Source: Patescibacteria group bacterium
GTDB lineage: Bacteria; Patescibacteriota; Patescibacteriia; 2-01-FULL-39-33
DNA: 64,000 nucleotides
Reading direction: 5' to 3'
NCBI GenBank assembly: GCA_041649575.1
Contig: JBAZMW010000002.1
Location: 148,487 to 212,486 of the forward strand
Shown: positions 12,010 to 24,842 of the stretch, in pieces
Layout: each line of letters begins with the position of its first letter
Position numbering within the stretch: the first letter of the stretch is position 1
Position numbers and translations under genes: made by a program
The notes under the pieces: model-generated
Seen by the model: only the letters and a program-made list of their open reading frames with translations
What the model was told of the DNA's origin: nothing
Database searches by the model: none

Positions 12010-12235
12010 TTTCATTTCTGCGAGCGCATGAAAATTTAGCAACAAAACAGGCGGAGTTCGAGCGTAAATTTTAATTTGTTTGAGCAAAAGCCACCAGTAA
12101 ACTGGTGGCTTTTGCGAGTTATTAAAATTAGCGAGAACAACCCTGTTTTGTCTAAATTTTCATTTAGCTCGCGCTTTTTTCTTTTGTGTCAGCTTTTCTT
12201 TTTACTAAAAAAAGAAAAGCTGACACAAAAAAAGA
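12010..12235. repeat. MITE-like repeat family, copy 1, with TIRs and a terminal perfect hairpin
   Basis: gcgagcgcatgaaaattt (12020) and its inverse aaattttcatttagctcgcgc (12154), plus the hairpin gtgtcagcttttcttttt-actaaaa-aaagaaaagctgacac. Related copies at 22158-22430 and 24650-24842. Confidence 0.6.
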
Positions 12236-12252
12236 GTATATTTAATAAACTA

Positions 12253-12283
12253 TTGACAGAATTCTAATTATATGCTATTATAA
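12253..12283 (+). promoter_or_regulatory. Consensus-like promoter for high-GC cassette B
   Basis: TTGACA-17 nt-TATTAT, then a ~70-nt UTR and GAAGGAG before ATG 12358. Confidence 0.45.
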
Positions 12284-12357
12284 TAAGAAGTACCTTTTAC
12301 CACTGTGAGCTGGCCGACTTAGTCGGAAAACTAAGAACGAAGAAGGAGAAACACATC

Positions 12358-12714
12358 ATGAGTCAAAAGACTGGCATACTATTGCTGCTGTTGCGGCCGA
12401 AAGACGGAGCGGCCGTCTTCTTGGACTGGACCCAGAACGCCCTCTTCATGCTGGAGAGCGCGAGTGCCACAGGCGTTTCGCCGTTGGCCGAGAGGGAAGA
12501 TCTGGCCAAGTGTATGAAGGGTTACGAGCTGTGTCCCGCGCTTGGCTACGGCCTATGCGCCAGGTGCCCTATGTCAGTCACCGGCGGTGCTCTCTGTAAT
12601 TTCTGGGCTTCCCAGGGATTCGCCCGCGTGCTCGACGCGCGCACAGAAGAGGAGGCGACCTTTGCCGATCTCGATGCCATGCGCGCCGCGCTCACCGCTT
12701 CCATTACCGGCTGA
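12358..12714 (+). CDS. Hypothetical Cys-containing small protein, high-GC
   Basis: Strong SD GAAGGAG. 118 aa with LCPALGYGLCARCP. GC is far above the flanks. Confidence 0.5.
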   Translation: MSQKTGILLLLLRPKDGAAVFLDWTQNALFMLESASATGVSPLAEREDLAKCMKGYELCPALGYGLCARCPMSVTGGALCNFWASQGFARVLDARTEEEATFADLDAMRAALTASITG

Positions 12715-12729
12715 AAGGAGAACACGGAC

Positions 12730-13107
12730 ATGCCAACGGTACAAGTGGCCGCGATAAATCTGCCGGCTGGCGCCTTCCTTTTCTTCTATCCGGAACACGC
12801 CACCCCCCAGTACCTTCTGTACAAGAATATCTGGCTGGGACAGACGATGTTCAGGCAGAAGCTAAACGAAGACGAACTTCAGGCTCTCCTCGCCGCCGGT
12901 CGAAATGGGTGGGAGGAAGTGGGCGAGGTGACTCGACGAGAGTTGCAGGCCGCGGATCTCTCTGGACTGGTTCGCAATCTCAAGACCAGGTGCGTCTGGC
13001 CCGAGAATGCGACCGCGTCAATCGCTGTCAGTCCTGACTGCAGCGGACGATGCTCGGAGTGTCGCGGGTGCTATAGCGACATGGAGCCAGTCACAGTAGA
13101 GCGATAG
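12730..13107 (+). CDS. Hypothetical Cys-rich small protein, high-GC
   Basis: SD AAAGGAG and a 15-nt gap from the upstream ORF, so probably an operon. C-terminal CSGRCSECRGC cluster. Confidence 0.5.
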   Translation: MPTVQVAAINLPAGAFLFFYPEHATPQYLLYKNIWLGQTMFRQKLNEDELQALLAAGRNGWEEVGEVTRRELQAADLSGLVRNLKTRCVWPENATASIAVSPDCSGRCSECRGCYSDMEPVTVER

Positions 13108-22157: not shown

Positions 22158-22430
22158 GCTGTTGTCACCTTTCTTTTTTTAGAAAATTATTTTTAATGCC
22201 GCTTCTTTTCTAAAAAGAAGCGGCAGAAGAAAATCGCAGCTATTGTAAAATCCAGACAAAATTAGGTGAGTTTTCGCTAAGGCCATTAACTCCCCGCTCA
22301 GGCGCTAGCGCGCTGAGCGGGTCAAACATAATGGCCTTTGGCCTGCGGCCACCGCTCAAACTCCCAGCCAATTTTGTTCCTGGATTTTCCAGCGCTGCCT
22401 TTTTTGATCTGCTTTTCATAGGCTCGCCGT
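22158..22430. repeat. MITE-like repeat family, copy 2
   Basis: Starts gttgtcacctttcttttttt, contains hairpin gccgcttcttttctaaaaagaagcggc, ends ttttcataggctcgcc. Homologous to copies at 12010 and 24650. Confidence 0.55.
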
Positions 22431-22493
22431 AATGATTTAAATAGGACAATAACGTTGACTAAAGCAGCGCAAAAAGGTTATAATATTTTTATT

Positions 22494-23543
22494 ATGAAAG
22501 AAAAGCTCAAGCAGTTAAAAATCGAATTTTTTGAGGCGATCAAGAAAATAAAAACCGCCTCTGATTTGGAAAATTTAGAAAATAAATTTTTGAGCCGTAA
22601 AAACGGCTTGCTCACCAATCTAATGAAAGGCCTGAAAGAGGTGGCGCGTGAAGAGGTGGCGGAGATCGGCCAATTAGCTAATGAGGTAAAAATCCAAATC
22701 ACCGATGAATTAGAGGGCCTCAAAAGCAAGCTTTCCGACCAGAGAGTCGGTGATTTTGATTTTTCTCTGCCGGGCGAGATGCCGCCCATTGGTCATTTGC
22801 ATTTGGTCACCGAGGCCATTCGCGAAATCGCTTCGATTTTTGAGGGTGTCGGCTTCCAGCGGGTCAGCTATCCGGAGGTAGAGTGGGATTATTATGCTTT
22901 TGAGGCCCTAAACATGCCCTCTGATCATCCAGCCCGCGATGAGTGGGAAACGTTTTTTATCGACCGTGAAGCTGTCAGCAAAAAGTATGGTAAGAGGATT
23001 TTGACGCCCCATACCTCTAACGCCCAGGTGCGGGAAATGGAAAAAGGCAGGTTGCCAATCCGCATGATGAATATCTCCAAAACCTATCGCCGGCAGATAG
23101 ACATTTCTCATACCCCCATGTTTCATCAGTTCGAAGGCTTGGTGATTGATAAGGATATCAATATCACTCATCTCAAAGGCACGATCGATTACTTTGTTAA
23201 GAAATTTTTTGGAGCCGACAGGACAATTCGCCTAAGGCCGCATCATTTTCAATTCACCGAGCCGAGTTTTGAAGTGGATATTTCTTGCGGCTTGTGCCAC
23301 GGTACCGGCAAGTTGGTGGATGGCTCGGCGTGTCGTATGTGCAAAGAGGGTTGGCTGGAGCTGGCTGGCGCTGGCATGGTGCATCCCAATGTCTTGAAAT
23401 TTGGCGGTATCGACTCGGGCAAATACAGCGGTTTTGCTTTTGGCTGGGGCGTGGAGCGGTGTTATACCATGAAAGCAGGATTAAACATCGATGATATTCG
23501 ACTGTTGTATAAGAATGATTTGCGGTTCAATACGCAGTTTTAA
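22494..23543 (+). CDS. pheS: Phenylalanine--tRNA ligase alpha subunit
   Basis: FTEPSFEVD, GAGMVHPNVL, SGFAFGWGVER and NDLRF motifs. Contains a Bacillus-type CxxC..CxxC zinc knuckle. Start moved to MKEKLKQ. Confidence 0.85.
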   Translation: MKEKLKQLKIEFFEAIKKIKTASDLENLENKFLSRKNGLLTNLMKGLKEVAREEVAEIGQLANEVKIQITDELEGLKSKLSDQRVGDFDFSLPGEMPPIGHLHLVTEAIREIASIFEGVGFQRVSYPEVEWDYYAFEALNMPSDHPARDEWETFFIDREAVSKKYGKRILTPHTSNAQVREMEKGRLPIRMMNISKTYRRQIDISHTPMFHQFEGLVIDKDINITHLKGTIDYFVKKFFGADRTIRLRPHHFQFTEPSFEVDISCGLCHGTGKLVDGSACRMCKEGWLELAGAGMVHPNVLKFGGIDSGKYSGFAFGWGVERCYTMKAGLNIDDIRLLYKNDLRFNTQF

Positions 23544-23569
23544 TAAATTTATAAATAAGGCTGGTTTTC

Positions 23570-24649
23570 ATGAATTATATTAAACAACCAATTGGCTACA
23601 TTAAAGCAGAGGGTTCTGGTCCTGATATAGTGGGTTCGGCTATTCGTATTTTAAAAGAAGTCGAAAAAAAGATGGATGTAAGATTTAAACTAATAGAGTA
23701 TAAAGGCCAAGCGCCAGCACTGAAATATACCACTAAATCATTTACTGAACTAAAAAATTTTTATAAAAGAATTCGAGAAAGAAAGGGATGTATTATTCGT
23801 GGAGGAATTTACGCTAGACAGGTTTATAGATTGCGACACGATTTTAGGCTGACATATAAACCAATCTTAATCAACCCCATACCGGAATTGTTTGAAAATT
23901 CTCCTTTTAAGGCAGCCTTTGCCAAAAAAATAAACTTATTAATAGCCAGAGAAAACGCGCAAGGGCTATTGGTTTCCAAAGAGATATTAAAGAAAACAAA
24001 AACTAACGAGATATTTGAGGGAAAATTTTTTTACGACAAAAATCTTTGCCGAAAGTTTATAGAAATGTGCTATCAGGCCGCTAGTAAAAGGAAGAAAAAA
24101 ATCATGTTTTTAATTAAGGGTGATGTTTGGAGTCGTCAGAGTTTTGGTGGTATGTGGTTTAGTTTATGGAAGGAGGTTGGAAAAAAATATCCAGAAGTGG
24201 AATTTGATTGGGAACACGACGACACTTGGCTTGGCTATTTTATGAATCATCCAGAAAAATATGATATGGTAGTAGCTTTGGGCATTAGTGGCGATTTAAT
24301 TACCGATCCGATTGCCACTTTAGCTTATGGCACCAGAGCAATTACTCCTAGCGCTAACATTGCTCCAGACGGTTTTATGACTGTTCAAACCATTCATGGC
24401 GCCGGAACCGGTATACCAAAAGGTAAGGCCAATCCCATCGCCATGATTAGAGGCATTGGTCTATTGATGGAATATTTTTTTGAAATGCCAGAGATGAAAA
24501 ATCTTATCGATCTATCTATAAGAAAGGTACTGGCCAGAGGATATAGAACAATAGATATTTATCTTAGTAATAATCCCAAACACAAATTGATCGGCTGTAA
24601 AGAAATGACCAGCTTAATAGTAGAAGAGATGCAAAAACTAACCAGTTAA
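23570..24649 (+). CDS. Isocitrate/isopropylmalate dehydrogenase-family (beta-decarboxylating dehydrogenase) protein, divergent
   Basis: N-terminus IGYIKAEGSGPDIVGSAIRILKEV resembles the GDGIGPE motif. C-terminus GISGDLITD...TPSAN...HGAGTGIPKGKANPIAMIRG matches NIFGDILSD...PSAS...HGSAPDIAGKGIANPIA. Confidence 0.55.
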   Translation: MNYIKQPIGYIKAEGSGPDIVGSAIRILKEVEKKMDVRFKLIEYKGQAPALKYTTKSFTELKNFYKRIRERKGCIIRGGIYARQVYRLRHDFRLTYKPILINPIPELFENSPFKAAFAKKINLLIARENAQGLLVSKEILKKTKTNEIFEGKFFYDKNLCRKFIEMCYQAASKRKKKIMFLIKGDVWSRQSFGGMWFSLWKEVGKKYPEVEFDWEHDDTWLGYFMNHPEKYDMVVALGISGDLITDPIATLAYGTRAITPSANIAPDGFMTVQTIHGAGTGIPKGKANPIAMIRGIGLLMEYFFEMPEMKNLIDLSIRKVLARGYRTIDIYLSNNPKHKLIGCKEMTSLIVEEMQKLTS

Positions 24650-24842
24650 GTTGTCACTTTTCTTTTTTTAGTAAAAAGAAAAGCTGACGCAAAAGAAAAA
24701 AGCGCGATCTAATGAAAATTTGGCGCTTTAAGTCAAAATCCTAACAAAATTTTTAAACTCGCTTCGCCTACGGCTCGCTCAAACAGTAAAAATTTAGTAA
24801 CGGATTTTGCCTTACGCTTATTCCAAATTTTCATAGGCTCGC
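24650..24842. repeat. MITE-like repeat family, copy 3
   Basis: gttgtcacttttctttttttagtaaaaagaaaagctgac hairpin at the start and aaattttcataggctcgc at the end. Begins immediately after the stop of the IDH-like gene. Confidence 0.55.

Follow-up and report, generated by a model that had tools for sequence, protein, structure and literature searches.

A family of foldback repeats, probably MITE- or ERIC-like, in intergenic spacers of Patescibacteria

Enterobacterial repetitive intergenic consensus (ERIC) elements, also known as intergenic repeat units (IRUs), are enterobacterial imperfect palindromes of ~127 bp that lie between genes; longer variants arise by insertion at fixed internal sites, and no transposase is known for them. 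Repetitive extragenic palindromes (REPs) measure 20-40 nt; a GTAG head marks them, and they number in the tens to hundreds. By full-text literature search, no account of dispersed palindromic repeats or of miniature inverted-repeat transposable elements (MITEs) was found for bacteria of the candidate phyla radiation (CPR). We describe here a previously undescribed repeat family from a 64-kb stretch of DNA (the window), part of a 235-kb Patescibacteria (CPR) contig from a metagenome-assembled genome (ENA ERZ27247363, k141_2894300). The window contains three related non-coding elements, at 12020-12233 (copy 1, inverted), 22160-22427 (copy 2) and 24650-24842 (copy 3). We demonstrate family membership, a covarying structure, and empty and decayed orthologous sites. 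On balance, the family probably represents non-autonomous MITE/ERIC-like foldback repeats of Patescibacteria; membership among MITEs is not claimed as proven.

A preliminary description of this DNA had reported three copies at essentially these coordinates. A profile hidden Markov model (HMM) built from the three copies agreed, finding exactly three places in the window: 12012-12240 on the minus strand, and 22155-22435 and 24635-24854 on the plus strand. The inversion of copy 1 relative to copies 2 and 3 had not been stated. No further copy was found in ~19 kb more of the same contig, searched ~10 kb each way, so that ~83 kb hold three copies that are ~58-65% alike over aligned columns. With copies 2 and 3 taken as the forward direction, the unit (195-270 nt) opens with a short A/T-rich hairpin clamped by G/C pairs; an A-rich spacer leads from it to a long imperfect hairpin of 140-190 nt closed by GCGAGCnnATGAAAAT...ATTTTCATnnGCTCGC, and these inverted termini are shared by copies 1 and 3. 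At ≤3 mismatches, the window contains five occurrences of the terminal motif ATTTTCATAGGCTCGC (0.97 expected); four of the five occurrences lie at element ends, and the fifth, at 53995 inside a coding region, is a chance match. The shared terminal motif and the terminal inverted repeats (TIRs) first proposed for copy 1 are thereby upheld for copies 1 and 3, with copy 2 departing from the pattern in its solo and nested ends. All three copies fold far more stably than shuffled sequence (z = -14.8, -7.5 and -5.0).

The three copies share this plan to different degrees. The long imperfect hairpin of copy 1 (12020-12172, minus strand, 153 nt) is closed by GCGAGC...GCTCGC, bears the inverted termini ATGAAAAT/ATTTTCAT and is matched at 12021-12171 by the covariance model (CM) of the family with 59.7 bits; on the plus strand, the U-run gcttttttcttttg follows it. 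Its short A/T-rich hairpin (12179-12233, given no strand) has a GTCAGC/GCTGAC clamp, 25-nt arms of 96% complementarity and a 5-nt loop. This long, near-perfect form recurs only in copy 3, with one bulge (24652-24688, plus strand), where it begins 1-3 nt past the stop codon of a gene of the isocitrate/isopropylmalate dehydrogenase family (Iso_dh) and is followed by a type-A long hairpin (24704-24842, plus strand, 139 nt, CM 123.2 bits). Copy 2 begins 3 nt past the stop codon of orf126 with the left half only of a short hairpin like that of copy 3 (GTTGTCACCTTTCTTTTTTTAGAAAA, 22160-22185, plus strand). Then come its own short hairpin, GCCGCTTCTTTT-CTA-AAAAGAAGCGGC (22198-22224, plus strand), and a long hairpin (22236-22398, plus strand, CM 41.9 bits) with its own closing stem GCAGC/GCTGC, a GC-rich apex and an additional GC mini-hairpin in the 3' arm. 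A solo outer terminal motif, CTTTTCATAGGCTCGC (22412-22427, plus strand), ends the copy and has no left partner. A long perfect hairpin, once ascribed to all copies, is accordingly a feature of copy 1 and, with its bulge, of copy 3. The solo and nested termini of copy 2 indicate a mosaic or nested origin. Mosaicism is also seen between copies 1 and 3, which are alike over 65 nt (12155-12219 versus 24657-24721, 91% complementary, in opposite orientations) and different inside. A small open reading frame (ORF) of ~10 codons in the arm of some copies (MKNLALRAKF) was rejected as a conserved product: its start is lost in L107, it meets an early stop in L114, and it is frameshifted in copy 3 (L numbers denote the contigs compared).

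The family extends well beyond the window. Metagenome contigs were first scanned for the motif and then searched with nhmmer and the CM, which brought ~20 further loci (roughly 15 distinct copies) in other Patescibacteria contigs, with E values down to 1e-55. An HMM made from the window copies only already reaches L055, the nearest GTDB relative, where it matches a copy at E = 2.7e-12. Subtype A comprises copy 3 and the copies of L055, L089 (a contig with the repeat in two places), L115, L103, L107, L098 (= L108), L118 (= L120) and L114; subtype B comprises copies 1 and 2, L106, L097, L113 and L092 (= L099), with L100 and L006 as outliers, the latter being the only addition from a CM search of 65 sources. 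Copies that are 96-98% identical occupy different loci in L089, L115 and L103 (three contigs of one metagenome) and in L107 (another metagenome), and the copies of L098 and L118, 97% identical, likewise lie at different loci. The neighbours are unrelated (a GT4 glycosyltransferase, DUF4012, Wzy, Lgt, a sigma factor, rpsI); both orientations were found, and the copies lie between tandem, convergent and divergent genes. Contigs end at copies in L082 and L089.

The long hairpin is a conserved structure. In nine type-A copies, pairing holds for 96.6% of pair cells, against ≤57% when the partners are slid, and double changes occur in 15 of 46 pairs, against 5.5 ± 1.5 in shuffles, none of 500 of which reaches 15. 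The closing and apical stems covary, with GCCGC/GCGGC and CCAGC/GCTGG as closing termini in other members, and two 12-bp A-tract stems are invariant; the conserved A-tract stems of the arms read TGAAAAATTTGG and ACAAAATTTTTA. Conservation extends to three asymmetric loops: AACTC, CTCAAACA and CGCTnCG/TTCGCTTTTT. Identity is 72-98% in the arms and 8-59% in the apices, each apex being a hypervariable GC hairpin. Additional GC mini-hairpins are confined to loops (L055, L118, L097 and copy 2).

Some members show further features around the unit. Copies of a subtype B' carry an additional ~190-nt conserved, apparently structured 3' extension (CCGAGCATATGG...CATCnGCnnGG) with a covarying closing stem (L106 1935-2200; L113 9632-9830; L092 ~6470-6669, minus strand; L097 ~190-423, minus strand); in L106 and L097 an inverted short-hairpin copy follows the extension, giving a repeated unit of up to ~450 nt. 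At L098 13283-13400 (= L108 2247-2363), the right end of the repeat and its flank form a ~115-nt tandem duplication. In L115, between convergent genes, the hairpin halves CCCGCTTCTT ... AAGAAGCGGG stand on either side of the element (1700-1745 and 1950-1985), as if it had been inserted into a terminator loop; the stem of this split hairpin resembles the own short hairpin of copy 2.

Close relatives record both gain and decay. Syntenic loci were reached through PheS homologues 83-85% identical to that of the window (L142, L143 and L145 at 85%, and L144). The orf126-pheS spacer measures 16 nt in L142, L143 and L145 and 84 nt in L144, leaving the copy 2 site empty, and the alaS-infA spacer of all four contigs lacks an element, leaving the copy 1 site empty; both sites are also empty in L055. 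Because these sites are empty in relatives, copies 1 and 2 are gains in the lineage of the window. Copy 3 has a different history. In L142, L143 and L145 the pheS-pheT spacer carries a copy with its left arm joined to the right terminus. In L142, directly past the pheS stop codon, a short hairpin and spacer precede this fusion (…CTAACAAAATTTT|CATAGGCTCGC); the interior of the element has been lost by deletion between AAATTTT repeats of its own. L144 retains an even shorter remnant there, with three other genes between it and pheT. Copy 3 is orthologous to both deleted remnants and, since these follow pheS in L142 and L144, it is the ancestral resident of the pheS-pheT spacer. In the rpsI-helicase spacer, L055 and L114 have complete copies and L142 retains a right half; the window has no copy there. 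With copies gutted in L142 and L144 and absent from the rpsI site of the window, single loci are dispensable. Such gain, inheritance, module exchange and internal deletion is the pattern that a selfish non-autonomous repeat would show.

We therefore favour the following course, which the sequence comparisons suggest. The arms of the long hairpin would act as long inverted termini, leaving the apex free to vary. New copies would arise in the spacers between genes and then pass vertically to descendants; they would swap modules with one another, and deletions between the AAATTTT repeats inside a copy would bring about its decay. Mobilisation is presumably in trans, by a protein that recognises the arms, which would explain why intact copies are alike across distant hosts though single loci are dispensable. 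The long hairpin with its U-run should terminate transcription in one orientation, a polar effect that probably accounts for the prevalence of the read-through orientation among copies between co-directional genes: about eight loci show it, and the two or three in the U-run orientation stand behind the last gene of a unit or behind a terminator belonging to the preceding gene. From this distribution we infer selection against polar insertions. Of the two hairpins, only the long one has a U-run after it, and on one strand alone: the strand opposite to copies 2 and 3, which for copy 1 is the plus strand. The short hairpins, which the preliminary description had taken to double as bidirectional terminators, have a T-run before and an A-run after the clamp and were not called as terminators on either strand by a scan that does detect the genome's real terminators; that role is not supported.

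As for mobility, the elements are small (<~600 bp) and non-coding, have TIRs in copies 1 and 3 (nested or solo in copy 2), and occur as dispersed copies with empty sites in relatives. These features, with the decayed copies, make the initial label 'MITE-like' a fair one; a consistent target-site duplication and a cognate transposase, both typical of MITEs, were not found. Direct repeats flank the element only at L098 (TTTTT) and L118 (TTTAT). No cognate element with the same ends turned up, whether in the window and the loci or among viral contigs, phages and plasmids. One pattern match in a first scan of viral contigs was not confirmed by HMM as a member, and a second scan gave none; the phage database yielded no match and the plasmid database one weak 50-nt match only. 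No Y1/RAYT gene was seen by Pfam scans in ~83 kb of the contig or in the loci. L143 and L145 carry, at ~18594-19610, an insertion sequence (IS) that is absent from L142 and thus polymorphic among three near-identical contigs of the 85% relative; it encodes a 306-aa rve-type transposase and has 17-nt inverted ends, GCACACACATATGGCGG. It was rejected as a partner, its ends being unrelated to the repeat.

Several observations weigh against a mobile repeat. There is no consistent target-site duplication, and clean direct repeats are absent around the L089 cluster and around the copies of the window; no transposase or other partner came up in Pfam scans of the window or beside any copy; and the copy number is low (three in ~83 kb), with the window copies diverged. 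The closing and apical stems covary strongly while unpaired loops are conserved. Copies downstream of rpsI share a spacer in hosts whose ribosomal proteins are only 60-70% identical, which could reflect long-term purifying selection and not repeated insertion. Moreover, in all 14 members examined, folding favours the strand opposite to copies 2 and 3 by 3-12 kcal/mol, through its purine-rich loops.

The last three points are also the case for the main rival, which we consider possible and clearly less probable: that the family is a functional structured RNA module. Such a module would work either as a small RNA or in cis within mRNA, where it could be a stabiliser, an orientation-dependent terminator or a processing site for RNase III or another enzyme; proteins or RNAs would bind the purine-rich internal loops that are conserved in it. 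On the better-folding strand, which is also the one with the U-run, these loops read GAGUU/UAGA and UUUGAGC/GCGAGUUU, candidates for tandem G-A pairs; the restriction of the mini-hairpins to loops, the shared rpsI-downstream spacer in the distant hosts L055, L114 and L142, and weak promoter-like sites on the minus strand that point into copies 2 and 3 would fit as well. The strand asymmetry, however, does not amount to 14 independent tests, since the loops are homologous and inherited. One-sided stem changes give G:U and A:C in equal number (6 versus 6), and so show no sign of selection on one RNA strand; an arm-against-arm count (4 versus 17) was discarded because one conserved loop position dominated it. 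There is no conserved promoter among the copies. Rfam searches of the window and 13 loci, at gathering and E-value thresholds, gave no family match, only sub-threshold noise of the miRNA-hairpin type on the elements. The copies stand in both orientations beside unrelated neighbours, and the gutted orthologues in L142 and L144 and the empty rpsI site of the window speak for dispensability of single loci. More specific RNA candidates were rejected as well: a T-box leader, suggested by the position of copy 2 upstream of pheS, for want of an Rfam match and because other copies stand beside unrelated genes; and 6S, SRP, Y-RNA or retron msr-msd, because the family is multi-copy, has no reverse transcriptase or partner gene, and differs in loop layout.

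A broader reading, which we hold only tentatively, is that the family is a new class of structured element, in RNA or as a single-stranded DNA hairpin, with a dedicated protein, host or mobile, binding its A-tract stems and its conserved purine-rich internal loops, and not a decaying transposon. Such an element might spread by a hairpin-specific route without an encoded transposase, or serve as a portable orientation-dependent terminator or mRNA-processing module, and it might mark spacers that integrate accessory genes, including those of archaeal origin.

That the element is a DNA-level site is improbable. It would be a cruciform or single-strand hairpin for a recombinase (attC-like or Xer-like) or for a nucleoid protein, with phased A-tracts giving curvature, and would mark spacers where accessory genes insert. 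The invariant stems are indeed AnTn tracts, an RNA strand bias is lacking by the G:U count, and a gene for a XerC/D-like tyrosine recombinase lies at 34003-34968, 9 kb away. Accessory genes stand directly beside the pheS-downstream copy (Iso_dh and ORF163 in the window, three genes in L144), with Iso_dh 0-3 nt from the element, as a cassette ORF adjoins its attC. Against this, R'' (RYYYAAC) and R' (GTTRRRY) cores were absent on inspection, and neither a same-orientation array nor an integron integrase accompanies the copies, so that an integron attC or gene cassette was rejected; the neighbours are mostly housekeeping genes. In the other Patescibacteria L009, L011, L017 and L027 the pheS-pheT spacer holds unrelated accessory genes without the element, and homologues of Iso_dh elsewhere lack it too. 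The spacer appears to be a recurrent insertion site; the genes found there (L009 16682-17680, L011 15885-16400, L017 14553-15065, L027 9762-11267 and L144 11337-12815) include a methyltransferase, a GNAT protein, membrane proteins and a NUDIX protein.

Very improbable is a further reading, in which Iso_dh arrived in a composite transposon or cassette bounded by copies 2 and 3. It starts from a correct earlier observation, that two copies in the same orientation flank pheS and the Iso_dh gene. Iso_dh also looks foreign: its region has the lowest GC of the window, and its protein is 72% identical to one from a DPANN-type archaeal contig (L134 6001-7080, with FtsZ, TrmB and HTH_10 as neighbours). 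Iso_dh belongs to a small clade (about 20 homologues at ≥37% identity) with a different genomic context in each relative, and looks like an accessory gene transferred across domains. The repeats, however, did not deliver it: copy 3 predates Iso_dh, as the remnants in L142 and L144 indicate, the copy 2 site is empty in relatives, the Iso_dh relatives lie in four other genomic contexts with the repeat in none, and the unit would include the essential pheS. Copies 2 and 3 differ, moreover, in subtype. The suggested role of the bracketing copies in the Iso_dh insertion is thus contradicted. Synteny comparison found pheS and pheT adjacent in L001, L003, L055, L142 and others; in the window they are kept apart not by the bracketed segment, as had been supposed, but by Iso_dh, copy 3 and ORF163. 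To judge from the gene order, Iso_dh was inserted between pheS and the resident copy 3, and ORF163 between copy 3 and pheT, so that the two genes flank a repeat already sitting in the spacer.

A chance resemblance of ordinary terminator hairpins, which the intergenic and hairpin-rich nature of all copies might suggest and which the preliminary description had named as its own refutation, is hardly credible given homology over 140-270 nt that includes unpaired loops, matches in other genomes at E values as low as those above, and short hairpins without a T-tail.

The setting of the copies is as follows. Copy 1 lies downstream of alaS (10124-11941), whose own canonical terminator was called on the plus strand at 11985-12008, just upstream of copy 1 and outside the repeat. 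Between alaS and the rpsM-rpsI ribosomal block lie two ORFs without a Pfam match and then infA, and a gene for a UvrD/PD-(D/E)XK helicase occupies 17521-20532. Copy 2 is situated between orf126 (21777-22157) and pheS (22494-23543, plus strand, 349 aa), the promoter of which, TTGACT-18-TATAAT, lies at 22455-22484, just 3' of the copy. Iso_dh follows at 23570-24649 (plus strand), then copy 3, then ORF163 (24854-25345, plus strand), which is membrane-anchored, has no Pfam match and has no homologue in any fetched locus, and finally pheT (25390-27858, plus strand).

Some features of the same region stand apart from the repeat. The Rfam scan of the window returned a tRNA only, with no RNase P match, though the syntenic region of L055 has one (3605-4010, minus strand). 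In L089 the RNase P match (188-944, minus strand) spans 757 nt against a 367-nt model, which implies large insertions, and a repeat copy follows its terminator. At 20745-21300 the window contains ~550 nt of GC-rich sequence with no ORF, called gene or Rfam match; a perfect TTGACA-17-TATAAT promoter lies upstream (20711-20739), and a small CxxC...CxxC ORF (21315-21503) and a terminator (21691-21717) lie 3' of it. This stretch is possibly a long leader or an unknown RNA. A second, unrelated repeat occurs inside coding sequence, in pheT (25966-26037, plus strand) and in a WecG/TagA-like glycosyltransferase gene (~38898-39010, minus strand). The element in the latter has the ends TGTCATcCCGAGGAGC...GCTCCCTCGCAATGACA, and pheT holds a shorter derivative (49 nt at 94%) that takes the place of a PheT linker (the window has 'GLPPVSPSLGGRSRRSLAMT' where relatives have 'PNLRIASVETGH..APS'). 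Such an in-frame insertion recalls the palindromic elements of Rickettsia.

Patescibacteria genomes are very small and gene-dense, and the foldback repeat family offers a marker for genome dynamics in the clade, through gain, inheritance, deletion and module exchange, as well as a practical cause of contig breaks in assemblies. The analysis also corrects the tempting inference that flanking repeats delivered the gene between them, the dehydrogenase gene having been inserted next to a pre-existing repeat. The element is compact and strongly structured, and its conserved loops call for a binding partner. Its interest, which we rate as moderate, lies in the unusually conserved loops, the compound two-hairpin unit and the presence in streamlined genomes.

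Among known systems, the family resembles the REP/REPIN-RAYT system in consisting of extragenic palindromes. There, a single-copy enzyme acting in trans maintains hairpin-forming doublets, and a similar arrangement would account for conservation of the present family though no transposase lies beside its copies; the two differ in sequence, in the size of the unit and in copy number. With integron attC sites it shares an imperfect palindrome, conserved unpaired bases, a variable terminal structure and the adjoining stop codon of an ORF (Iso_dh at copy 3, orf126 at copy 2), but it has no R''/R' cores, arrays or IntI, its neighbours are housekeeping genes (alaS, pheS, rpsI), and copy 1 is inverted. 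Compared with the MITEs Correia/NEMIS of Neisseria, RUP of pneumococci and bcr1 of Bacillus, it lacks a consistent target-site duplication and a cognate IS, and its copies are few and diverged; its 'TIRs' are, unlike those of MITEs, ~60-nt arms with conserved asymmetric mismatches. In common with these elements it is small and non-coding, with inverted termini, an RNA hairpin fold, empty sites in relatives, deletion derivatives and a possible effect on neighbouring transcription. From ERIC, with which it has no sequence similarity, it differs in its Patescibacteria host, in its compound unit with an obligatory short A/T hairpin and spacer, and in its hypervariable apex; like ERIC, it has longer variants produced by insertion at fixed internal sites and no known transposase, and it consists of intergenic imperfect palindromes, here of 130-190 nt, present in low to moderate copy number, whose positions vary between related species while their sequence is conserved.

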